A DNA stretch of 26,335 bases from a virus (lineage: Duplodnaviria; Caudoviricetes): positions 1 to 26,335 of the IMG/VR virus record IMGVR_UViG_3300046786_000151. One strand, given 5' to 3'. A model generated the notes under the pieces. That model did no database searches and was not told where the DNA came from. It worked only from the letters and a program-made list of their open reading frames with translations. A program made the translations under genes and the position numbers. The first letter of the stretch is position 1. Every line of letters starts with the position of its first letter. This document shows positions 4,669 to 24,804 of the stretch, piece after piece.

Positions 4669-5873
4669 CAGAACGTAATCAACTCTTTCAGACCTTGAAT
4701 ACCTGATGTCGCGCTGAGAATAGCCATAGAACCCTGCAAGTAGGATTTCTGGGTATCAACGGCTGCTTGTTTCGGGCTTACGATTTCTTTGTTATTCGCA
4801 TCATACAATTTACCGCCTACTATTTTTGTAGCGTTAGGCGGCCAGTTCTTCTTGTCTTCAGTAGGCGCTTTACCGTCAGTCGTTGAATAAGAAGACAGAT
4901 CAGGGTTCGCCATGATGTCAGCAATATTTTTTGTAGCTTGCTGGAATATCTCGTTGGCTGATGCTGACGCTTGCATTGCATTTTTGTATTGAGCTTCTGT
5001 AGCAGCCAAATCTTTGCGAGTCTGAGCATCAATGTTTTGCAGCTCAATCTTCGTGGCCGCGTCAGCGTTGGCAAGCGAAACCTTCATCGCTTGGTCCATC
5101 ATGTTCGCCACGTTGGCGTTGACGTTCTTGGCAAAGTCACTTGCCGAAATATTCTGCGCGGTAGCTTCAAACTTAGCTGCTTCGTTTTGAGCGGAAGCAT
5201 TAGCTAACGACGCAGCGTTTTCCGCGCTTGCGCCAAATCTCGATGCCTCATTGATCGCAGCTTGATTAGCGGCAGCAGCAACGTTCTCAGCAGTTGCGCC
5301 GAACTTTGCAGCCTCATTCTTGGCGGCAGTGTTTGAAGCGGCTATAACGTTCTGAGCATTAGCGCCGAACTCGGCTGCTTTGCTTTGAAGATTGGTGTTG
5401 AATTGCGCCATCGCGTTGGCGGTATCGGCATTTGTTTTTGCTGCCGAACCATACATTGCTGCGTCAGCTTGCGCGATCGGAAGCGCCTGTTTGATCACTG
5501 CTTCTTGACCAGCACCAACAGCCATACTGGAATTGATCAGGCCACGTCGATTCATCTGGGCCAGAGACTGCGCTCTGGCTTGCTGCATCAAAGGCGAATC
5601 GGCAGCGATCACACCTTCTAATTGGCCTTGAACTGTTTGTGGACTGGTGACATTCCAATTAGTACCGGTTGCGGTACCTGCGTTATATCCAGTAGCTTGT
5701 GCCTGTGCCGCGTCATAGCCCGACGACTTTTGCCCGACGGCATCGTAACCAGTAGCGCCGGCATTTGCCGCGTCATATCCAGTCGTGTCTGCTTGCATCG
5801 TGCCAGCCGCTGCTTGCTGTTGCAATTGAGCGGGGGTCTTAGTTGCAAAAGGGTTGTCTGCTGTAGCCATCAT
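4668..5873 (-). CDS. Ala/Gln/Asn-rich internal virion protein with internal repeats (about 400 aa)
   Basis: GGAG SD. MNRRGLINSSMAVGA motif, GYDA repeats with 10-aa period, and F-G-A-x-A-x-N repeats with 22-aa period. First gene after the 5884-5971 regulatory unit. Confidence 0.7.
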   Translation of the reverse strand: MMATADNPFATKTPAQLQQQAAAGTMQADTTGYDAANAGATGYDAVGQKSSGYDAAQAQATGYNAGTATGTNWNVTSPQTVQGQLEGVIAADSPLMQQARAQSLAQMNRRGLINSSMAVGAGQEAVIKQALPIAQADAAMYGSAAKTNADTANAMAQFNTNLQSKAAEFGANAQNVIAASNTAAKNEAAKFGATAENVAAAANQAAINEASRFGASAENAASLANASAQNEAAKFEATAQNISASDFAKNVNANVANMMDQAMKVSLANADAATKIELQNIDAQTRKDLAATEAQYKNAMQASASANEIFQQATKNIADIMANPDLSSYSTTDGKAPTEDKKNWPPNATKIVGGKLYDANNKEIVSPKQAAVDTQKSYLQGSMAILSATSGIQGLKELITF

Positions 5874-5883
5874 TTAACTCCAC

Positions 5884-5916
5884 AAAAATAAAAAGCCGCT
5901 TCAATGAGCGGCTTTT
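5884..5916 (-). terminator. Intrinsic terminator immediately before the ejection operon
   Basis: Plus-strand AAAAGCCGCT-TCAATG-AGCGGCTTTT, giving a minus-strand hairpin followed by TTTTTATTTTT. T-tracts on both sides make it potentially bidirectional. Confidence 0.85.
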
Positions 5917-5941
5917 TTCAGGGCGCAGGCCCTCTTCGAAA

Positions 5942-5971
5942 ATTCTACCATTAACATTTCCAAACGCGCAA
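5942..5971 (-). promoter_or_regulatory. Sigma70-type promoter (copy 1)
   Basis: TTGCGC (5971-5966), 18 nt, TAGAAT (5947-5942) with an extended -10 TG. Near-identical architecture to 21474-21503. Confidence 0.7.
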
Positions 5972-6196
5972 CGATTTATTGATGCGGCTGTTCGGATCAT
6001 TTGCCGTTTTGGCACTTGTCAATTTGGCTTTCATTCCCTTCATTCGGGCGCAAAAGCTTTTCTTTCTGGAACCACCTTCGGGTTGCGGCGGCTTCAGATC
6101 GCTGCCGGGATTATCCCGCTCGTAGCTTTTCCGGCCTGTCTCATTCAGGCCGCCGGCTTCGCTCTTGCCGGCCTTCTTTGTCCAAGCTGCTGTCAT
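5951..6196 (-). CDS. Small basic phage protein (DUF6321-like, 81 aa)
   Basis: ATG at 6196 overlaps the spanin stop (ATGA). The AW..K.GK...GGLN..GR.SY...RKKSFCARM.GMK...SRINKSLR.W.C pattern is recalled as DUF6321-type and was not verified by search. Confidence 0.65.
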   Translation of the reverse strand: MTAAWTKKAGKSEAGGLNETGRKSYERDNPGSDLKPPQPEGGSRKKSFCARMKGMKAKLTSAKTANDPNSRINKSLRVWKC

Positions 6197-6678
6197 GGGT
6201 TCACCCTCCTTACGGTTTCGTACTGGTCCCGGCACTGTCTGAGGAGGGCGCGGAGTTCGTCTGCTCTGGCAGCTTCCCTTGCAAGAAACTCTCCATCCGG
6301 GCGGTAAAGTTTTTCTCCAGTACATCCGGCGGGAGCGGGTCCAGCATTGGCGGTACTGGGCACGGTACTGGCTTCGGTGGTGGGGCGCTCCGCCCTGTCG
6401 CGCAAGCTGTTAGTAAGAGCGGTAGCCCGAGCATTAAGATTGCGAATCTCACGGTCTTTCTCCTGTCTGATTTGATCGGCGCTGGTTTGTAGCTGCTGTT
6501 CCTTCTCACGGGCGGCTGCCTGCGCTTGCGCGTAGGCGGACTCCTGTTCAGCGCGTTCCTTGTCCCAAGCCTGCTGGACCTTGGCTTGGCCGGCTTGATT
6601 ACCTTGGTAATATCCAGCGCCAGCCGCCCCGATCACCGCGATCACGAAACCGAGAATGATCCACGGGTTCGGAATCAT
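6193..6678 (-). CDS. i-spanin (Rz-like, 161 aa)
   Basis: Single N-terminal TM segment, long coiled coil, and C-terminal AARADELRALLRQC. Contains an out-of-frame lipoprotein gene. Confidence 0.8.
   Translation of the reverse strand: MIPNPWIILGFVIAVIGAAGAGYYQGNQAGQAKVQQAWDKERAEQESAYAQAQAAAREKEQQLQTSADQIRQEKDREIRNLNARATALTNSLRDRAERPTTEASTVPSTANAGPAPAGCTGEKLYRPDGEFLAREAARADELRALLRQCRDQYETVRRVNP
6210..6452 (-). CDS. o-spanin (Rz1-like lipoprotein, 80 aa) embedded in the i-spanin gene
   Basis: AGGAG SD before GTG at 6452. Signal peptide MRFAILMLGLPLLLTA-C with lipobox LTAC and a Pro-rich mature region. Confidence 0.8.
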   Translation of the reverse strand: MRFAILMLGLPLLLTACATGRSAPPPKPVPCPVPPMLDPLPPDVLEKNFTARMESFLQGKLPEQTNSAPSSDSAGTSTKP

Positions 6679-9187: not shown

Positions 9188-9799
9188 CTACGGTTTAATA
9201 TTCATGAACTGCGTTATTGTGTATCTTCCGTCGCCGCCAAAAGGCGTGTACGGCGTATTCATTTGCACAGGAGTAACAGAATGTTCCAGATTTCCGGGGA
9301 ACAGTATGAGCATATTGTTTCGTTTCTCTATCACTAAATCGTATTCATGCAATACAAAATCTCCGCCAGAAAAACTAGCCGGGTCTTTCATAAAAATAGT
9401 AACCGCAGTAAATACGGAAACGTCCCTGTGTTTTTTGTACTCTCCGCCGCTTTCGTAATAATTCAATAAAGTATAATCAGAATTAATCCCGTTTAAAATA
9501 CAGTACAACGGGTTTATGTTTTTTGCAGTATCTGTAATTTCTTTAGAAAAAACTTTTCTGTTGCATTTCAATATGTCAGAAAAATCCCTGTCTGCATAAA
9601 CGCGATCAATCCACACTCCGGTAGCCGTTTTTAAATACTCTTCACCTTCTTGTGCCGTTCCGGTTTCTTTTGGCGGTTTAAGCTTATTACTGTCAGTCAG
9701 AAAATTAAATTCTTTCCACAACAAAGCAAGCTCTTCTTGGGTGTAAAAATCATCCCAGATAAGCACTGGCACATGGGCAGGCAATGGCAGCAGTCTCAT
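9188..9799 (-). CDS. Fe(II)/2-oxoglutarate dioxygenase, prolyl-4-hydroxylase-like
   Basis: YKKHRD (HxD), FSGGDF, FPGNLEHSVTPV (distal His), GRYTITQF (2OG-binding Arg). ATG at 9799 directly follows the upstream TAG. Confidence 0.88.
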   Translation of the reverse strand: MRLLPLPAHVPVLIWDDFYTQEELALLWKEFNFLTDSNKLKPPKETGTAQEGEEYLKTATGVWIDRVYADRDFSDILKCNRKVFSKEITDTAKNINPLYCILNGINSDYTLLNYYESGGEYKKHRDVSVFTAVTIFMKDPASFSGGDFVLHEYDLVIEKRNNMLILFPGNLEHSVTPVQMNTPYTPFGGDGRYTITQFMNIKP

Positions 9800-9800
9800 A

Positions 9801-10394
9801 CTATTTAAACGCAGGACCGCCAACCCACAACACCAAGGAACGACGCACGCCTTTTGTAACAGGCGTCACTCTGTGCAAAGTATAGGACGGAAAAAACCAC
9901 GCCCTGCCTTTTACTGTTTCCAAAGTTTGTACGATATCGGAATTAGTTTTTACTTGAAACTCTCCGCCTTCAAATTCAGACGGATCAGAAAGCAGCATAG
10001 CAAAAGAAAGTTTTCGTGGAACACCTTTGTCCGTTGGGGCAGCATCTGTGTGCCAGTCGTAATGGCCTTGTTGAGATTCAGTGTACAAGCCGAGTTGCAT
10101 AGGCTCATGAAACCCAGTCAAGTCAAAATGAAAAAACCGACTATTAACTTCGGCAACCGTGTTAGCAAGCTTTTCCCATAAATGTTGCAATTCCGGTTTT
10201 GCTCCAATCCAAGCAACTTGACTTGCACGAACACGTTCGTTTACTTCACCGGAACCACCGACACATCCGTTTTGAAGATGCAGCCATTCAGGTTGTGCAA
10301 GAAGTAAATTAATATCTTCGGAAGTAAAAAATCCTTCCCAGTAAGCCGTGTTATCTTTGCCGGGTATAGACCGTTGTGGTATTGGATAAATCAC
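9801..10394 (-). CDS. Fe(II)/2OG dioxygenase, PKHD-type hydroxylase-like
   Basis: YDWHTD, RKLS, FEGGEF, FFPSYTLHRVTPVTKGVRRSLVLW. Confidence 0.92.
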   Translation of the reverse strand: MIYPIPQRSIPGKDNTAYWEGFFTSEDINLLLAQPEWLHLQNGCVGGSGEVNERVRASQVAWIGAKPELQHLWEKLANTVAEVNSRFFHFDLTGFHEPMQLGLYTESQQGHYDWHTDAAPTDKGVPRKLSFAMLLSDPSEFEGGEFQVKTNSDIVQTLETVKGRAWFFPSYTLHRVTPVTKGVRRSLVLWVGGPAFK

Positions 10395-10981
10395 TTAGAC
10401 TCCATTACGTAAGCTCTATTTTTTCTATAAGAATACATGTCACGCGTAGTGTTATCGCCTACTTCCCCAGCGCACTGTCCATTCTTATAAACAAAATGAA
10501 GAAAGACTTGACCCGAGTAATAATCGTCAGGACCATCGCATTTGTTTCGCCAATGTTCTACATCACATCCCGGATAGATTACGCCGTCCCCTTCAGCTAA
10601 ATCAAATCGTTGGCCGCCCATATAAATAGGCCAAGCATAGTGGTGCGATCGGCCAAGTTGAATTGTAACGCTGACTTCACAAGCTGGCCGATCTTTATGA
10701 CGTTCTAATACATCACCGTTACTATAAAGCCGGGCATAAGCATAAGTTGGAATCAGTTCTTTGCCAACAGCTCGTTCAATAGCCGGCCACAAACTTTCGT
10801 GCAACGTCTCAAACATATACTCATGATCAAGAATAGCTTTTGCGTTAGGTATTTGGCTATCACCTTTCGGGTTTAAATCCGCCTGCCGCATAAGCACATG
10901 CGTAAAGAATTTACAAAACTCAATAGAAACAAGGTTCTTAACATACAACGCCGTCTGCGTTTTTAGCGTGTTGCTCAACAT
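10391..10981 (-). CDS. Fe(II)/2OG dioxygenase-like protein
   Basis: YARLYSNGDVLERHKDRPACEVSVT (HxD), GDGVIYPGCDVEHWR (distal His), QVFLHFV. Confidence 0.8.
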   Translation of the reverse strand: MLSNTLKTQTALYVKNLVSIEFCKFFTHVLMRQADLNPKGDSQIPNAKAILDHEYMFETLHESLWPAIERAVGKELIPTYAYARLYSNGDVLERHKDRPACEVSVTIQLGRSHHYAWPIYMGGQRFDLAEGDGVIYPGCDVEHWRNKCDGPDDYYSGQVFLHFVYKNGQCAGEVGDNTTRDMYSYRKNRAYVMESK

Positions 10982-13663: not shown

Positions 13664-15216
13664 GACACGTTCCCCGTAATAACGCAAACAGTTCCGGATA
13701 TAAAGAAGATGGTTGCAACGCCTCTTGTCGCTAAAGTTACCGTTGCTTTGTCTGCATCAGTTCCTGATATGTAAGCCGTCGTTATGGTACAAGTAATAGT
13801 TATAGTGCCGGCGGTATTATTGAAAACCGAAACAATATCGCCTTCAGCAAAGGTTGCGTCTGGAATTGTGATTGAACCGGCTGTGCCTACTTGTACATAC
13901 TTACCGACATCGGCAGTAGTTAAAGTATAAGAGCCGGTTTTAGTTCCAACGGCAGGCACGTTTCGGAAACCAACTTTGTATCCGTTGCCGGCTGCGTCCA
14001 TGAAGTTGAAATCGCCGGATGCCGAATACAATGAGATGCCGTTTGTCAGCGTACCGGCAGGTGCTGTGCCGTTAAACAGGTCGAGATGCGCAGAGCCTGC
14101 TGTTGTTCCACGGGCAGCGGTACCCCCTATAAGTACGTTGGCGGAAGAGCTAATCCGCATCGCTTCACTACCGCCTTCTGTAAATGCAATCGTGTCAGCA
14201 GCCGGGAAGAAAATACCTGTGTTGGTATCCCCAGACGTTGTAATAGCCGGGGCAGTTACAGTGCCAGCCTGAACAGTGGTTACACCTGTAGCAGACAGCG
14301 TAGTAAACGCGCCGGTAGTTGGGGTACTTGCACCCACCGTGCCATTGATGTTGATCGATGCGGTCCCGGTCAGGTTGGTCACTGTACCGCTGGAAGGCGT
14401 ACCTAATGCACCACCGTTAACGACGAACGCGCCAGCAGTTCCTACGCTAACGCCCAGAGCGGTTGCAACACCTGTGCCGAAACTTGTAATGCCTGTACCA
14501 CCATTGGCTACTGGCAAGGTTCCGGTCACACCCGTTGTGAGAGGAAGCCCGGTGGCATTGGTTAACGTACCAGAGGACGGCGTACCTAACGCACCACCGT
14601 TAACGACGAACGCGCCAGCAGTTCCTACGTTGACGGCAAGGGCTGTTGCAACACCTGTGCCCAAACCAGAAACACCCGTACTAATAGGCAACCCCGTGGC
14701 ATTGGTAAGCGTGCCAGAGGACGGCGTACCTAACGCACCACCGTTGACAACGAACGCGCCAGCGGACCCGACGTTAACGCCCAGAGCGGTTGCAACACCT
14801 GTGCCGAAACTCGTAATGCCAGTGCCGCCGTTGGCTACTGGCAAAGTCCCGCTTACGTGGGTCGTCAAACCGATCTTGCCCCAGCTTGGCGCTACACCCA
14901 CGCCGCCCGAGATCAGCGCATTGCCTGTGGCCACATCGGCCAGCTTCGACAAAGCCGTGCTTGTGCTGGCATAAAGAAGGTCGCCTACTGCATAAGATGC
15001 AAACCCTGTGCCGCCCGAGGTAGCCGGTAAAGTCGCTACTCTAGTCAGGGCCGTGGCGGTAGAGTTAACAACGATGACCGCATTGGCACTAGCCGTTAAA
15101 GTCGGCATCTTGTCAAAGCCGGCTGCAATAGAATCAAGTTCCGAACGCATGCTGGCTGATGTCGCAGCCGATCCCGTTGTCGGAAAACTACCGTGGTTAT
15201 AAAAATCGTTTGACAT
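13660..15216 (-). CDS. Tail fibre protein (518 aa)
   Basis: N-terminal anchor (SASMRSELDSIAAGFDKM), GTLPVANGGTG shaft repeats, GDTNTGIFFPAADTIAF knob, and a C-terminal SYTLTTADVGK domain. TAATG overlap with the nozzle gene. Confidence 0.88.
   Translation of the reverse strand: MSNDFYNHGSFPTTGSAATSASMRSELDSIAAGFDKMPTLTASANAVIVVNSTATALTRVATLPATSGGTGFASYAVGDLLYASTSTALSKLADVATGNALISGGVGVAPSWGKIGLTTHVSGTLPVANGGTGITSFGTGVATALGVNVGSAGAFVVNGGALGTPSSGTLTNATGLPISTGVSGLGTGVATALAVNVGTAGAFVVNGGALGTPSSGTLTNATGLPLTTGVTGTLPVANGGTGITSFGTGVATALGVSVGTAGAFVVNGGALGTPSSGTVTNLTGTASININGTVGASTPTTGAFTTLSATGVTTVQAGTVTAPAITTSGDTNTGIFFPAADTIAFTEGGSEAMRISSSANVLIGGTAARGTTAGSAHLDLFNGTAPAGTLTNGISLYSASGDFNFMDAAGNGYKVGFRNVPAVGTKTGSYTLTTADVGKYVQVGTAGSITIPDATFAEGDIVSVFNNTAGTITITCTITTAYISGTDADKATVTLATRGVATIFFISGTVCVITGNVS
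14384..14850 (-). repeat. Three imperfect direct repeats in the fibre shaft
   Basis: GTGVATAL(G/A)V(N/S)VG(S/T)AGAFVVNGGALGTPSSGT occurs three times, with plus-strand starts at about 14384, 14567 and 14711 (spacing 183 and 144 nt) and high DNA identity. Confidence 0.92.
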
Positions 15217-18417: not shown

Positions 18418-18447
18418 AAAAAAGGAAGGCCACCGAAGTGGCCTTCC
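18418..18447 (-). terminator. Strong intrinsic terminator after the capsid/decoration genes
   Basis: Minus-strand GGAAGGCCAC-TTCG-GTGGCCTTCC-TTTTTT: a 10-bp stem with a cUUCGg tetraloop. Confidence 0.92.
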
Positions 18448-19164: not shown

Positions 19165-20223
19165 TTAGAGAGCGGTCACACCGGCTTCGATACGTGCCAT
19201 CCATGCGTCGTTCAGACGGACGGTAGCAAACCATGTCGAAGCACCAACGTAGCCGAACTGGCCCAGTGGGTTGGCGTGGTTAGTCTGCGATGCTTTCAGG
19301 ACGACAGGCTTGATAGCCTGCATGCCCTTCAGTGCAACCTGACCCCAAGCATCTTCACCGATGACGATGAACGGATACACGTCAACGGCAGAAGCGCCGA
19401 CCGACAGCATGCCATTCAGGGTACCGGAACCAGAGCCAGCGAAGCTGGTCAGCAGAGGCGAAGAGATGAAACGGAAGTCTTCGCAAGCACCGATCTCGCG
19501 ATCGTGGATTGGCTTGAATGAACCGTAGTCTTCAACGCGGGTAAAGCCGGGCAGGTTACGGATATCAGCAACAGCATCAGTGTGGCAGAACACGATGTAC
19601 GCAGGCTGCACAGCACGGGTTGCGAAGTTGACGCCGGGAGCCAGACGCGAAGTCACACGACGGCAACGGTTCGATTCCAGAGTACGTGCGGCTTTACGAA
19701 TAGCGTTCAGGCTGATCGCGGTGTTGACAGCAGAGCGGCTGGTGCCGTTTGCGTAGACAACAGTCGAGCCGGCTTTCAGAACACCGTAACGGACCAGTTC
19801 CATTACCTCGGCCAGAGTCTCGCCAGTCAGCTTAACCATTTCGCCGGGGATGTCGTCTTCGTACAGTTGCTCGACTTTCGAGCTGTACTTGAACAGAACG
19901 CCGTACTGTTGCAGGGTGACAGTCACGTCTTGGAAAGAGATCGTGTTGCTGTTAGGCGTGACGCCTTCAGCCAGCACGAAGTTCGAAGCTGTGATCTGTG
20001 GAGTGCCCTGATAACGTGCCGAGCCTTCAATCGTGGTACCAACAGTCGAAGCACCGAAAGGCAGTGTACGACGGAAGACCAGAGTGTCGGTCGAGTTCAT
20101 TGGCATCTCGCGCTGGGTACCGAAGTCGCCCAGAACGGTGATGGGTTGTGCATGCTCAAGCATGCCCTGTGCTGCACGGATTAGGTTACGCGAGGCAACT
20201 GTGCCGTAATTTTGAATAGCCAT
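19165..20223 (-). CDS. Major capsid protein, N4-gp56 family-like (352 aa)
   Basis: LAEGVTP, VTLQQYG, EIGACEDFRFISSP, VYPFIVIGEDAWG, NPLGQFGYVG motifs. AAGGA SD, follows the scaffold. Confidence 0.92.
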   Translation of the reverse strand: MAIQNYGTVASRNLIRAAQGMLEHAQPITVLGDFGTQREMPMNSTDTLVFRRTLPFGASTVGTTIEGSARYQGTPQITASNFVLAEGVTPNSNTISFQDVTVTLQQYGVLFKYSSKVEQLYEDDIPGEMVKLTGETLAEVMELVRYGVLKAGSTVVYANGTSRSAVNTAISLNAIRKAARTLESNRCRRVTSRLAPGVNFATRAVQPAYIVFCHTDAVADIRNLPGFTRVEDYGSFKPIHDREIGACEDFRFISSPLLTSFAGSGSGTLNGMLSVGASAVDVYPFIVIGEDAWGQVALKGMQAIKPVVLKASQTNHANPLGQFGYVGASTWFATVRLNDAWMARIEAGVTAL

Positions 20224-20246: not shown

Positions 20247-21152
20247 TTAAAACCCGCGCTGCGCTCTAGTTTTTTCGCGCTTTGCGGCTTCGTAGTTCCA
20301 AAGCTCTTCTGGCGACATGTCGTCCAATGTTTTGGGCGGCGGTGTCTGGCCGGGTCGAGTTGTCGCGGCAGCAGCAAGTCGCTGCCCACGCTCTTGCTTG
20401 ATATCCGACGCGGAACGTTTCTTCGTTTCGTGGAACAAGTCCAGCATACGAATTGCGTCTCGCGCTGAGTCGCTGTTTGCCAGAGACCGAATTTCCGGCG
20501 ACTGTACGGTGAACCATTGCGTGAACTCCAAAGTGTTCACGGTGTCCTTCCAGTTCTCGTACTTGCCATCCACACGCGCCTCTTCGATGGCTTGCCTCAT
20601 CTCTGCTTTGGTCTGGTCAACCTGCTGCTGCACGAATGCAGCAACCTGCTGGGGATCAAGCCCCTGCTGTGACTGAACGGACCCTAGCTTAGATGCGACG
20701 TACTCCTCCATCGCTCCAGCCCACTCGGGGAAATCTTCCTTGAGCTGCTCCCACTTCTCTGGGTTTTTGGCTGCATTCGCGATCTGTCCCTGAGACGGAG
20801 CTTCTTGCGGGGCAACTTGCTGTTGCGCCACTCGGGCTTGCTGGAACTCACGCTGCATCGCGGCCACACGACCCTCGGCAGTTTTTACATGGTGCAGCAG
20901 TTGAGCATTGGCCGTTGCCAGTTCGTCGATTTGAGCAAGCTTCGCTCTCACGGCTTCTGGTAAGCTGGCCAGTGGGTCTTCCGGCTCCTCACTCGGTGCG
21001 GCTTCTTCAGCTACGGGTTCATCTTCCAGCAGCGGCTCTTCCGGTGCTGTGGCCATTTGCTGGTTTGCGGACTGATCGTCAGCATCCAGTTTTGCGGCCT
21101 CTTCATCCCAAAGCTGTTGTGCTTCCTCCGGTGATAGTTGGTTTTCTTCCAC
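20247..21152 (-). CDS. Capsid scaffolding protein (about 301 aa)
   Basis: GGAG SD before GTG at 21152. Acidic N-terminus, coiled coil, C-terminal DDMSPEELW...basic tail. Directly upstream of the MCP. Confidence 0.8.
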   Translation of the reverse strand: MEENQLSPEEAQQLWDEEAAKLDADDQSANQQMATAPEEPLLEDEPVAEEAAPSEEPEDPLASLPEAVRAKLAQIDELATANAQLLHHVKTAEGRVAAMQREFQQARVAQQQVAPQEAPSQGQIANAAKNPEKWEQLKEDFPEWAGAMEEYVASKLGSVQSQQGLDPQQVAAFVQQQVDQTKAEMRQAIEEARVDGKYENWKDTVNTLEFTQWFTVQSPEIRSLANSDSARDAIRMLDLFHETKKRSASDIKQERGQRLAAAATTRPGQTPPPKTLDDMSPEELWNYEAAKREKTRAQRGF

Positions 21153-21162
21153 TTTGCTCTCC

Positions 21163-21190
21163 AATAAAAAAGCCATCTCTCGATGACTTT
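21163..21190 (-). terminator. Intrinsic terminator immediately before the scaffold gene
   Basis: Minus-strand AAAGTCATC-GAGA-GATGGCTTT-TTTATT: GNRA loop with one G-U pair. Confidence 0.7.
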
Positions 21191-21209: not shown

Positions 21210-21413
21210 TTATTCGTCCGGCTCAACCACCACACCCCGAGTTACCTCATTCGGTAAGTCGAGAAATCTTTTTATGAATCGGATTTCACCCCGCAACAAC
21301 GCCGTCTCTATGTCGGAGAGATTGACGGCATCGTTTTTATCGCGGCATTTACGAAGCTGCTCTTCGGCCCACTTGCGTATGACATGCCACTCTGGCGAAC
21401 TGAAATTGATCAT
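21210..21413 (-). CDS. Small conserved-type head-region protein (67 aa)
   Basis: MINFSSPEW...ETALLRGEIRFIKRFLDLP resembles the small proteins found between portal and scaffold. Alternative GTG start at 21458. Confidence 0.7.
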   Translation of the reverse strand: MINFSSPEWHVIRKWAEEQLRKCRDKNDAVNLSDIETALLRGEIRFIKRFLDLPNEVTRGVVVEPDE

Positions 21414-21443
21414 AATAAAAAAGCCAGCGCGAGGCTGGCTTTT
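21414..21443 (-). terminator. Intrinsic terminator in the leader of the head operon
   Basis: Minus-strand AAAAGCCAGC-CTCGC-GCTGGCTTTT-TTATT. Confidence 0.85.
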
Positions 21444-21473
21444 GAAAATTTTGGACACAGGGTCTCTGCAAAA

Positions 21474-21503
21474 ATTCTACCTTTTATCATAGGATTTGTG
21501 CAA
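21474..21503 (-). promoter_or_regulatory. Sigma70-type promoter (copy 2)
   Basis: TTGCAC (21503-21498), 18 nt, TAGAAT (21479-21474), with an A-rich UP-like tract upstream. Intergenic. Confidence 0.75.
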
Positions 21504-21550: not shown

Positions 21551-21916
21551 TCAAAGCGGCGATCTTGCATAACGATAGAAGACTGCGGCTGTAACTTTAA
21601 AACCAGAACCTGTGCCGCCAGTAATGTTTGGTCGAATAAAAGCCGGCATCTCTTGGGCAATCTGTACCGATGCAACGGTATAGGCCATGTTGGCTGTGCC
21701 GCCACGCTGGGTCAGCGGATGCCAGTTGGTACCGTCGTTCGATCCTTGGAACGTAACTGTCGATCCGCCGAACGTGCCTGTGACTTGAAAGGTCAAATCG
21801 GCTGCTGCGTTCAAACCAAACGGTGCCCCAGAGTCACCGGTCGCCATGGCGTCCCAAGTAACAAGGACAGCGCCTGCTGCGGTGTTGCGATCGGTTGTAG
21901 GTGTAATGGTTGCCAT
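21551..21916 (-). CDS. Putative small beta-sandwich virion protein (121 aa)
   Basis: AAGGA SD, FQVTGTFGGSTVTFQGSNDGTNW motif, Thr/Gly/Ala-rich. Confidence 0.65.
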   Translation of the reverse strand: MATITPTTDRNTAAGAVLVTWDAMATGDSGAPFGLNAAADLTFQVTGTFGGSTVTFQGSNDGTNWHPLTQRGGTANMAYTVASVQIAQEMPAFIRPNITGGTGSGFKVTAAVFYRYARSPL

Positions 21917-21927
21917 GCTGATTTCCT

Positions 21928-22380
21928 TTAGTATTTAAAAGCGTTGTTGATCAAACCGGAATCGCCGACTCGCTCTATGTCAGTCAGCGAAGGCTGGCTT
22001 AGTTTTGCCATTTGAGCTGCTGTCGCCGAAGGCCCTGCTCCCGGTGAAGTAGGCTGCTCCATGGTGAATTCGCCGGGGCTGGCTACGGGCTTGTCTTTGT
22101 ATTGAAAACCGTATTGATTATTGCCAAAACCGACCCGGTTGTATTGATTAGCCTGCGCAGTGGTCAGCCTTACGTTTGTGTTCGGTACGTAATAGCCACC
22201 TCTCGTTGAATAGAATACGGCCATCTCGCCTTTGTTGTCCGGCACAAATGACGCTCTGTACTCGTCAACCGCAGCGTCGTGCTGATTGGCTTGAGCTTTG
22301 TAGTGGCGTGCCTGCTGACGGTATTTGTCCAAAGCGTCATTGTATGCATCAATCTCACGCTGAAGAGCGATGGCGGCCAT
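21928..22380 (-). CDS. Hypothetical protein (150 aa)
   Basis: Starts 3 nt after the portal stop. N-terminal coiled coil and low-complexity C-terminus. Confidence 0.65.
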   Translation of the reverse strand: MAAIALQREIDAYNDALDKYRQQARHYKAQANQHDAAVDEYRASFVPDNKGEMAVFYSTRGGYYVPNTNVRLTTAQANQYNRVGFGNNQYGFQYKDKPVASPGEFTMEQPTSPGAGPSATAAQMAKLSQPSLTDIERVGDSGLINNAFKY

Positions 22381-22383
22381 AGT

Positions 22384-24804
22384 TTAAATTCCCGATCCCA
22401 TGCGTACCTTCAAGTCCTGTTCGGCTGCAAACAGTTCTTTGCGGCCACGCTCTTTGATCGCTGTGTCGGCCAGTTGCGCCTTGATCTTCTCAAGCGACAG
22501 GTTCTGTGCGTTCGACATCTTCAGCATCTCGATCTCACGGGTTAGCTCTAGCTCGGCCATCCTGATCTGGGCTTCCTGCTGCATCTTTTGCTGGCGTGCC
22601 TGAATCTCGGCCATGTCGCCCTGAGTCTCCATCTCCGCAAGCTTGAGGTCAGTCTGCGCACGCAGGTTCGCAGCTTCGATGCGTGGGTCAGGTGGCGGTG
22701 GCTGGTTGGCCATGGCCTTCTGCTGTTCCTTGATCTGCTCGATCTCTTCCTCGGATTTGAACACCTCGGCTGGATCGACGTGCTGGGCTTGCAGTGCTTT
22801 GCGGAACAGCTTCTCGGTGTCAAGGTACATGCCGTAGATCGGATTCGCGCCAGCGGCAAGCAGGTTCAAGAATGCTTGATTCTGGATGTCACGTATAAGC
22901 AAAGCAGAAGAGCCGCGTGCGTTGATACTGAAGTCGCCCTTGACCTCTTCGTCCTCGTTGTACAGCATGTTGTAGTCGTAGTACCGACGGATGTGCGGAC
23001 GTGTGACCATGTCGTCGAATTGCTTGACCAGTCTGCGCAGTACCACGTTGGCAGAGTTCATCAGCATCTGCATACCGCCAACGGTATCAGGCGCTGCGCC
23101 CTTCTCACCTTGCAGAATGGTTGGCACACCGGTCTCCTGATCGACCAGCTCGGTCGCCATCTTGATGATGCCGGACAGTTCGGCCTGATGGCTGTTGAAC
23201 TCGAACGTGGCAAAGGCTTTCGACACATCGTCCACGTCGTCGGTTGCGTACCATATCTTGCGGCTGGATAGCTGCCACTGCTTGTCAGCCGGCTGGATGA
23301 CGTTTGGCTTCATGACGATCTGCGGACCGCTGGACACGCCTGCGTTGTCCATCATCTGACGCCATGCAGCGTTCAGTACCTTCTGCTGCGAACGCATCAG
23401 GTAAGGGATTCCATAGCCCCAGACGCTGTTGGCGACCTTCTCCCAGACGTAGAAGTCATATGGCAAATCGCCGCCTTCCAGTGGGTTCAGGAACGCTTTG
23501 ACGACGGTGCTGTTGATAATGATCACGCAAGCACTGACGCTCTTCAGCTCATCCTTGTCACCCGCATGGACGCCGGCGGCGTCGAGGTCATCATGCTCGA
23601 CCTCACCCCAGTAGGTCCACATCTCGTACAGGTCACGCGCCACGTCGCGCTGGTCGTCATCGCGCAGCTCTTCCATGGTGTGCGACCGCTTCGGTCCTTC
23701 CTCCAGAACCTTGCGCAGTTGTGCCTTCATGAAACCCGGCTGCTTGGCCAGCTCACGAATCTGCTTTGCAGTGATCTGCTCACGCTCGTAGATGCCCTTG
23801 CCGTGGTGGATGTTCTCGCCGCATGCCGGGTCCGGCCACACGTTGTGCGGATCGACACGGAACGAAGCAGGGGCCAGCTCCTCGACGATCTCGATCTGGT
23901 GAACCTGCTGCCCTTGTGCATCGGTGTAAGGCTGCCACGCCTTGCGTGTGCGGTTGGTGACGATCGGGCCACGGATGACGCCTGTGCCGAACACGGCTGC
24001 GTCGTGAAGCATTTTGCGCAGTTCGCCGTTGTAGTCGCACTCGGTCAACTGATCGTCGATCTCGCGCTGCATCGCTTCGGCTTTCTTCTTGGCGAGGTTC
24101 ATCACCTCTCGCGCAATGTCCTTCATGCGCATCGGCTGACCGGCTTGGTCGGTGATTTGCTGGGGACCCTGTGGGCCCATAGCCATGCCTGCAAGCCCTG
24201 TAGGCGCTTCAGGAGCCATGCCCGGCTGTGGTGGTGCCGGAATACCCGGCGGTGCCATGGTGGGCTGTGGAGGTGCCATGCCGGCCTGCGGTGGCGGCAT
24301 CATGCCGCCTTGCGGCGCTGGCAGTCCCTGTTGCTGGCCCATTTGCTGACCCATGGGTCCGCCGTCCGTCGCTGGCCGCTCATCCTTCAGCATGTTCATC
24401 AGGTAAGGGTTTGGCGTTGGCGTGATACCCCAGTTCCTGTCGTCAGTCGGCAGAAGGATGTCGGCGACTCGCGCCTCTGCTGCGTTGGTCTTCTGGCGTG
24501 TCATGCCGATGAAGACGGTCGAACGATGGGGCTTGGCCATCTGCGTCGTCACCGGATAGCCCTGCTCGACAGAGGTCATCATCTGACTCGCTGCCTTGGC
24601 TATGTTGTCCTTGTTGTTGTACTGGTCTTCGTCCTCAAGCCAACGCTTGTCCACGCCATAGCTGTAGCGATCACGAACCCATTCGTCGCGTTGCTTGGAC
24701 AGGGTGCGGCCAAAGGCTTGCAGGCGCTCTTCTTTTTTCTCGCGCTCGACTTCTGGGTCGATCTCTTCGATCTCTACGTCAATTTGCTGTGGCTGTAATT
24801 CCAT
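22384..24804 (-). CDS. Portal protein (806 aa)
   Basis: DAAVFGTGV, WGYGIPYLMR..Q..LN, QETGVP...QG, GDFSINARGS motifs and a long C-terminal helical barrel as in P22-type portals. AAGGA SD. Confidence 0.9.
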   Translation of the reverse strand: MELQPQQIDVEIEEIDPEVEREKKEERLQAFGRTLSKQRDEWVRDRYSYGVDKRWLEDEDQYNNKDNIAKAASQMMTSVEQGYPVTTQMAKPHRSTVFIGMTRQKTNAAEARVADILLPTDDRNWGITPTPNPYLMNMLKDERPATDGGPMGQQMGQQQGLPAPQGGMMPPPQAGMAPPQPTMAPPGIPAPPQPGMAPEAPTGLAGMAMGPQGPQQITDQAGQPMRMKDIAREVMNLAKKKAEAMQREIDDQLTECDYNGELRKMLHDAAVFGTGVIRGPIVTNRTRKAWQPYTDAQGQQVHQIEIVEELAPASFRVDPHNVWPDPACGENIHHGKGIYEREQITAKQIRELAKQPGFMKAQLRKVLEEGPKRSHTMEELRDDDQRDVARDLYEMWTYWGEVEHDDLDAAGVHAGDKDELKSVSACVIIINSTVVKAFLNPLEGGDLPYDFYVWEKVANSVWGYGIPYLMRSQQKVLNAAWRQMMDNAGVSSGPQIVMKPNVIQPADKQWQLSSRKIWYATDDVDDVSKAFATFEFNSHQAELSGIIKMATELVDQETGVPTILQGEKGAAPDTVGGMQMLMNSANVVLRRLVKQFDDMVTRPHIRRYYDYNMLYNEDEEVKGDFSINARGSSALLIRDIQNQAFLNLLAAGANPIYGMYLDTEKLFRKALQAQHVDPAEVFKSEEEIEQIKEQQKAMANQPPPPDPRIEAANLRAQTDLKLAEMETQGDMAEIQARQQKMQQEAQIRMAELELTREIEMLKMSNAQNLSLEKIKAQLADTAIKERGRKELFAAEQDLKVRMGSGI

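Follow-up and report, generated by a model that had tools for sequence, protein, structure and literature searches.

The DNA analysed here, referred to as the window, is a 26-kb virus record (26,335 nucleotides, 47% complete) whose minus strand carries the structural genes, about half the gene set, of a podovirus-like phage. Its gene content includes terminase, portal, capsid, adaptor, tail fibre and lysis genes as well as putative ejection genes. A short unit made up of promoter, leader, linker and intrinsic terminator occurs twice (Table 1).

Table 1. Positions of the two unit copies and of neighbouring genes and hairpins in the window
Feature	Position	Strand	Remarks
-35 hexamer TTGCAC, copy 2	21498..21503	-	head-operon promoter, class B; TTGC kept in homologues, partly by pattern construction
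Spacer, copy 2	21480..21497	-	18 nt; AA at -17/-16
-10 hexamer TAGAAT, copy 2	21474..21479	-	from sequence and homologue conservation
Leader AGAGACCCTGTGTCC, copy 2	21453..21467	-	15 nt, beginning at the 7th base after the -10; consensus elemental pause
Pause register, copy 2: G-10; putative pause pyrimidine (+11); G+1	21466; 21457; 21456	-	
A/T linker, copy 2	21444..21452	-	conserved only in class B; contains a -10-like nAnnnT hexamer
Intrinsic terminator 1	21414..21443	-	hairpin ending GGCTTTTTTATT at 21414; probably bidirectional
67-aa ORF	21210..21413	-	conserved; first gene past terminator 1
Intrinsic terminator 2	21165..21190	-	no promoter of its own; directly ahead of the putative scaffold gene
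Putative scaffold gene	20247..21152	-	by position; GTG start after GGAG taken from relatives
Major capsid protein	19165..20223	-	
Third terminator-like hairpin	18424..18447	-	after the capsid block, ahead of adaptor/tail genes
Copy 1, whole unit	5887..5971	-	class C; ahead of putative ejection-protein genes beginning at 5873
-35 hexamer TTGCGC, copy 1	5971-5966	-	
-10 hexamer TAGAAT, copy 1	5947-5942	-	
Predicted +1, copy 1	5935	-	
Leader, copy 1	5935-5921	-	
Terminator stem, copy 1	5912-5895	-	

The 67-aa ORF begins right behind the terminator U-tract. It has no obvious Shine-Dalgarno sequence, most of its homologues also lack one, and no Pfam or PHROG family was matched by it. Terminator 2 is found at the same position in four of five listed relatives; the terminator scan missed it in G001, a close relative, and in the window itself. 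A site similar to the third hairpin is present in two relatives (G005 and G009), and more promoter-less terminators, beyond those borne by the units, lie deeper inside the operons.

Other features of the window lie outside the head operon. A DUF6321 gene (5951-6325, minus strand) has a 3' end that overlaps the copy-1 promoter; in relatives, small basic homologues of this gene sit at varying places in the late region. Three tandem 2OG-Fe(II) oxygenase-like genes (9188-10981, minus strand) are found between the tail-fibre and lysis genes, and three degenerate repeats of ~155 nt (14375-14856) lie within a tail-fibre-like gene.

Conservation of the unit

The hexamers TTGCAC and TAGAAT alone are only modestly beyond chance (4/100 shuffles). 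A repeat finder run on the window missed the two unit copies among the repeat families listed, and Rfam gave 0 hits at gathering score for the whole window. In E-value mode it gave 7 sub-threshold hits, and both alignments among those listed are driven by the terminator. The unit is considered real because it is conserved in homologues.

These homologues belong to a large uncultured family. The 67-aa ORF was detected in 99 viral stretches and the capsid protein in 321, and 80 of each were kept. No close cultured relative was found, the best identities being 42.7% for the capsid and 39.3% for the portal protein. The closest relative that carries the Q-like gene described below is G001, which aligns to 78% of the window with 83.6% identity; the AA at -17/-16 of copy 2 is also present in all three of its promoters. 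RNA runs containing the stretch are mostly freshwater by record. Contigs from four of these runs cover mostly the scaffold and capsid genes. Among the matches listed, none lies at 21552-22571, those in X2 and X5 span terminator 2, and one in X5 spans the whole unit; such contigs carry no strand, start or transcription information and are not counted as evidence. Two genome-collection contigs in MAGs labelled Klebsiella and Prosthecobacter are probably mis-binned phage contigs and were not used to assign a host.

Promoter and leader are present in 83 of 86 distinct regions upstream of the orthologous small ORF, a set in which G+10, Y+11 and G+12 were part of the search pattern. One of the other three regions has the unit 270 nt further up, and two distant ones are without it. 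The promoter-leader-linker-terminator unit on the minus strand is real and conserved, as the preliminary description of this DNA had proposed for a repeated promoter-leader-terminator unit.

In 54 modally spaced class B promoters, a pyrimidine stands 6 nt past the -10 and a purine at the 7th base in every case (54/54 for both), with G+2 invariant. From this pattern of Y at -1 and R at +1 we infer that transcription of copy 2 starts at 21467. The terminated RNA is predicted to be ~52 nt long, in line with the ~50-nt RNA expected earlier from near this position.

Ten near-complete relatives have two or three units per genome. Class A units open the late region, class B units precede the head genes and class C units the ejection genes. 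The three classes have nothing in common downstream beyond the pause register, and paralogues are alike only in the first 15 nt. Natural deletions have also been found. Three members lack terminator 1 and keep the promoter and leader (deletion seen at loci L020-L023, L025-L027); terminator 2 is retained at all six terminator-1-deletion loci that have downstream sequence. Two distant members are without leader and without terminators.

The pause register and the leader hairpin

The published elemental-pause consensus is 5'-GGnnnnnntgYRccc (PMC9974457). The leader of copy 2 agrees with it at 7 of the 9 specified positions and that of copy 1 at 8, where the window background for a score of at least 7 is 0.36%; 56 of 57 unique leaders score 6-9 (L082 left out). 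T-3 N Y G, which the leaders match in register, is the consensus of initial-transcription or scrunched pauses as well (10.1101/2019.12.21.886044; PMC9191641). The difference from these known pauses is that here the sequence starts at +1 and that paralogous promoters have kept it as a regulatory module.

A scan blind to the leader, which covered all collected loci except lambda and asked for a promoter with a terminator lying 25-65 nt past +1, gave 127 distinct units, 112 of them from loci retrieved by protein homology and not by leader pattern. G-10/Y-1/G+1 occurs in 127/127 of these units, which are related (91 promoters fall into about 31 clusters), with the Y 16-19 nt after the -10, corresponding to an RNA of 10-11 nt. 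The background is 7.6% when two registers are allowed and 14.9% with four. For other promoter-like sites in the same genomes the register fits 3/39, and one of these is itself a unit. In class A, G-10 is likely the +1 base too, and start-site preference can therefore contribute. Five units have a broken GYG core but retain all three high-information pause positions, a pattern that points to a pause rather than to a word bound by a protein. The invariant feature of all classes is the pause register and not a hairpin.

The preliminary description had tentatively read the leader as an RNA element with a boxB-like hairpin, and GAC/GTC in copy 2 versus GGC/GCC in copy 1 as an apparent compensatory change. 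Covariation is indeed present in one group of leaders. In the 19 leaders that start with A, a 4-bp stem (3-6/12-15) is 88% paired with double changes at 3/4 pairs, and its covariation score is reached by 0/500 shuffles; this stem was chosen from the same related sequences, and a -2 slide equals it on covariation (0.237 vs 0.225). The comparison of the two window copies is less direct, as their stems have a 5-nt versus a 4-nt loop and align only with a one-base register shift. The 3-bp 5' hairpin of copy 2 is weak (-0.9 kcal/mol, z 0.13) compared with copy 1 (-8.3, z -2.4). When folding is set against permuted middle bases, the mean percentiles are 0.50, 0.19 and 0.28 for classes A, B and C. 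The class A stem is no better than its permuted controls, and the 21 leaders of that class yielded no consensus structure.

A boxB/nut-like RNA hairpin bound by an RNA-binding antiterminator, which could even be the HTH-less Q-like protein described below, would account for the covarying stem and for the better-than-permuted folding of classes B and C, and a similar motif is promoter-distal in the Dina-like prophages discussed later. Lambda N/nut boxB and HK022 put share with the units an RNA hairpin upstream of a terminator. N/nut systems have a conserved boxB stem-loop with a fixed loop, whereas in these leaders, only 15 nt long, loop size and pairing register slide between members, UGC falls in the loop in some and in the stem in others, and it is the distance of the leader from the -10 hexamer that is fixed. 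The antiterminator found in relatives is Q-like rather than N-like, and no conserved in-frame arginine-rich N-like gene was seen; the five candidates from a crude scan of conserved small ORFs resemble alternative-frame ORFs over structural genes. With the class A results and the selection of the stem from related sequences, these observations make a boxB function unlikely. Because the hairpin is partial, variable in register and weak in copy 2, it is regarded as accessory, and in classes B and C its likely use is 5'-end protection or as a stopper.

A Q-like protein in relatives

A gene for a Q-like protein of 152-157 aa stands right after an SNF2-type helicase gene in 10/10 near-complete relatives. 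It is absent from the window, a 47%-complete fragment, and its assignment to the window phage is made from relatives. The best PDB sequence match of the G001 protein is lambda Q (7ubm_Q, profile E 4e-5). An hhalign comparison with lambda Q gives a probability of 88 and E 2.9e-6, and PHROG 127 (Q-like) is matched at E 2.4e-5; Pfam PF03589 itself was not matched at E<=1. The AF2 model has a pLDDT of 83.7, with low values in the first 13 residues. Its top Foldseek rows are 7ubn_Q (probability 1.00, E 4.7e-3) and 7ubm_Q (E 0.2), and the top VIA row is AlpA (Z 6.8, rmsd 4.7, 111 aligned); with Foldseek E > 0.001 and VIA Z < 8, the structural matches are of intermediate strength. Among Atlas neighbours of the protein, CHP02642 occurs in 34% of members and Antiterm in 15%.

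The torus glycine (G34, aligned to lambda G39) is invariant in 32/32 Q-like proteins; lambda G39 is needed for antitermination (PMC9388147). Equally invariant (32/32) are the four Cys of the zinc ribbon arm (2 x CxxCxGxG), the strands of which are present in the model. The C-terminus is different. About 22 lambda residues (~171-192) are unmatched in the end-to-end alignment, and the model has one helix (131-156) after the zinc ribbon where lambda has HTH helices H4-H5. The tail past the second CxxCxGxG is 34-43 aa in 119/122 proteins, compared with 56 in lambda and 68 and 51 in outgroups. The relatives' protein is ~50 aa shorter than lambda Q and is predicted to be without the HTH recognition helix. 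Of the features of the Q-lambda family it has the homology, the torus with its G39 equivalent and the zinc arm, and the C-terminal HTH is the one predicted to be missing.

Burkholderia phage vB_E253 gave a weak Q match and was set aside, its genome layout being unrelated. In Pseudoalteromonas phage vB_Pun_Y3 a gene annotated 'molecular chaperone DnaJ' (L379:552-1136) resembles a lambda-Q-type antiterminator (hhalign E 1.3e-5), and VPAG_00015 of Vibrio phage douglas 12A4 is similar to it.

The likeness to lambda extends from the regulator, with its torus motif, zinc ribbon and C-terminal helix, to the DNA. Like the lambda PR' cassette (PF03589; 7UBM, 7UBN; PMC9388147), the units have by sequence a sigma70 promoter, a promoter-proximal elemental pause (G-10 Y-1 G+1) and an intrinsic terminator before late genes. 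The units are very probably Q-gated late promoters, and control of read-through, as suggested in the preliminary description, is judged likely.

Alternatively, the main role of the units could be as genes for small RNAs (~45-70 nt), or as 5'-stabilised leaders whose terminators are leaky, with no antiterminator involved. Each would yield a discrete RNA with a 5' hairpin, and one of the sub-threshold Rfam matches, on the right strand, is to a Betaproteobacteria toxic sRNA (RF02278; 16.4 bits vs 50, E 0.81). No match reaches gathering score, though, and an RNA product of this kind is hard to reconcile with paralogues that share only their first 15 nt, with a terminator 1 that some members have lost, with a conserved Q-like gene, and with units that always head late operons requiring read-through of at least two terminators. 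A role of this sort is considered very improbable.

Proposed loading of the Q-like protein

In the mechanism proposed for these Q-gated promoters, host RNA polymerase would start at 21467 from the sigma70-type promoter and be halted by the pause sequence once its RNA is 10-11 nt long, while still at the promoter or only beginning to leave it. When no phage factor is present, transcription would end at 21414 with release of the ~52-nt RNA. In the late phase of infection, the halted complex would be joined by the lambda-Q-like protein, whose torus closes over the exit channel ahead of the arriving RNA 5' end (by analogy with Q-lambda), and the loaded polymerase would be carried through terminator 1 and the downstream promoter-less terminators. 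Before threading, the Q-lambda torus has room for no more than 11-13 nt of RNA (PMC9388147), which fits a pause at 10-11 nt as the last point for closing ahead of the 5' end.

How the protein would be recruited is less obvious, as the usual DNA elements were not detected. For a -10-like SDPE at the transcript start, the 54 class B promoters have G at +2 in 54, T at +5 in 0, and A at -4/-5 in 0/1. A 13-bp QBE common to target promoters was not found, paralogous spacers being alike at best at 5-8/13 positions. Across spacer positions -29..-20, promoters of one genome resemble each other no more than those of different genomes do (p 0.11). For -19..-13 the within-genome likeness is 0.51 vs 0.32 between genomes (15 vs 90 pairs; 7 genomes, one per lineage), with a peak at -17/-16. 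At class A promoters, the long-subtype Q goes with AA at -17/-16 in 7/8 and the short-subtype Q with G at -16 in 11/12; this association is probably one phylogenetic switch and therefore only a lead. The zinc arm of lambda Q presumably contacts bases near -15..-13, and its HTH bases near -25..-22. Lambda Q contacts QBE positions 11-13 and 1-4, the latter read by the HTH (PMC9388147). A -35-like YTG 0-1 bp upstream of the -10 is found in 11.1 of 31 clusters vs 2.1 when shuffled, and the window is without it. It was rejected as a sigma4 re-binding site since TG at -17/-16, a known promoter element, explains it equally well.

With the HTH predicted to be missing, and with no -10-like element at +1 and no shared 13-bp QBE, loading probably relies on protein contacts and on the promoter's own -10, which may serve as the sigma anchor; the zinc arm perhaps contributes by recognising a few bases around -17/-16. 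The whole model, in which a Q-type antiterminator joins a polymerase paused at +10/+11 and the promoter -10 is the anchor, seems reasonably likely from the sequences compared. That loading is fully free of SDPE and QBE is put forward tentatively, as somewhat less probable than not. A -10-like element and a QBE are said to be required by every Q protein characterised (PMC9371919), and no precedent for an SDPE-free route was found. No description of an HTH-less Q or of the promoter-leader-terminator unit was found in the open-access literature searched.

Compared with lambda PR', there are up to three promoters per genome, and they lie 4-6 kb or more from the Q gene rather than directly downstream of it (Q-like 36097-36558 and first unit 41912 in G009; Q-like 45886-46359 and a unit at 41615 in G001). 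The pause is at +10/+11 instead of +16/+17 (PMC9388147), and the terminator is only 35-60 nt from +1. AlpA of Pseudomonas aeruginosa and BrrG of Bartonella (PMC9371919; 10.1101/2024.11.20.624540) resemble the system proposed here in that they load in a Q-like manner where a terminator follows the promoter. They differ in requiring a -10-like element past the promoter and in binding to the promoter region, which AlpA does via its C-terminal HTH.

A more canonical arrangement would be a lambda-like cassette displaced 14 bp downstream, with a -35-like hexamer at +8..+13, 1 bp, a -10-like pause hexamer at +15..+20, and loading near +30. The geometry mirrors that of lambda PR' (PMC9388147), and nAnnnT begins at Y+4 in 37/48 class B leaders, so that such a reading is allowed for that class. 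The hexamer occurs in only 1/22 class A and 0/10 class C leaders, however; the -35-like core is gone in five units that keep the pause positions, and the RNA would already be ~30 nt, beyond the torus limit. As an explanation for the units this is improbable.

An HTH plus small zinc-ribbon gene is convergent with the Q-like gene in 10/10 relatives (G009:36524-37048, minus strand; G001:45357-45896, plus strand) and is a candidate co-regulator. The leader might be a DNA site for its product, acting as a repressor or as a partner that recruits Q in a GafY/GafZ-like division of labour. Pfam HTH_23 is matched above the cut-off, the protein could provide the missing HTH in trans, and two-factor control exists in CcGTA (PMC11150451). 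This has a low probability: the gene sits in the early operon, and the conserved bases are exactly the polymerase pause consensus, while the core tolerates change elsewhere.

If loading at the +10/+11 pause is correct, these phages would provide a natural test of which Q-loading steps are essential and a biological use for pausing at promoter escape. The units would also be a compact, portable promoter-terminator switch with >50 natural leader variants. A widespread freshwater phage family seems to have dropped the QBE, the -10-like pause element and the HTH of Q, and to have fixed a near-perfect elemental pause at +1.

Ralstonia Dina-like prophages (L382:11900-12090; L383-L393) encode a Q-like protein that does bear an HTH, and their late leader of ~165 nt contains a long hairpin, for which no Rfam family was matched at threshold. 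A near-identical pause motif occurs there immediately ahead of the terminator, ~100 nt past +1, and the motif is therefore not always promoter-proximal. Consistent with a pause, a -10-like hexamer precedes the motif in lambda geometry in L392, one distant relative. In five relatives of the window phage (G004, G006, G007, G009 and G010), the spacer of the divergent early promoter is conserved and contains an inverted repeat, TGACAG…CTGTCA, that may be an operator.
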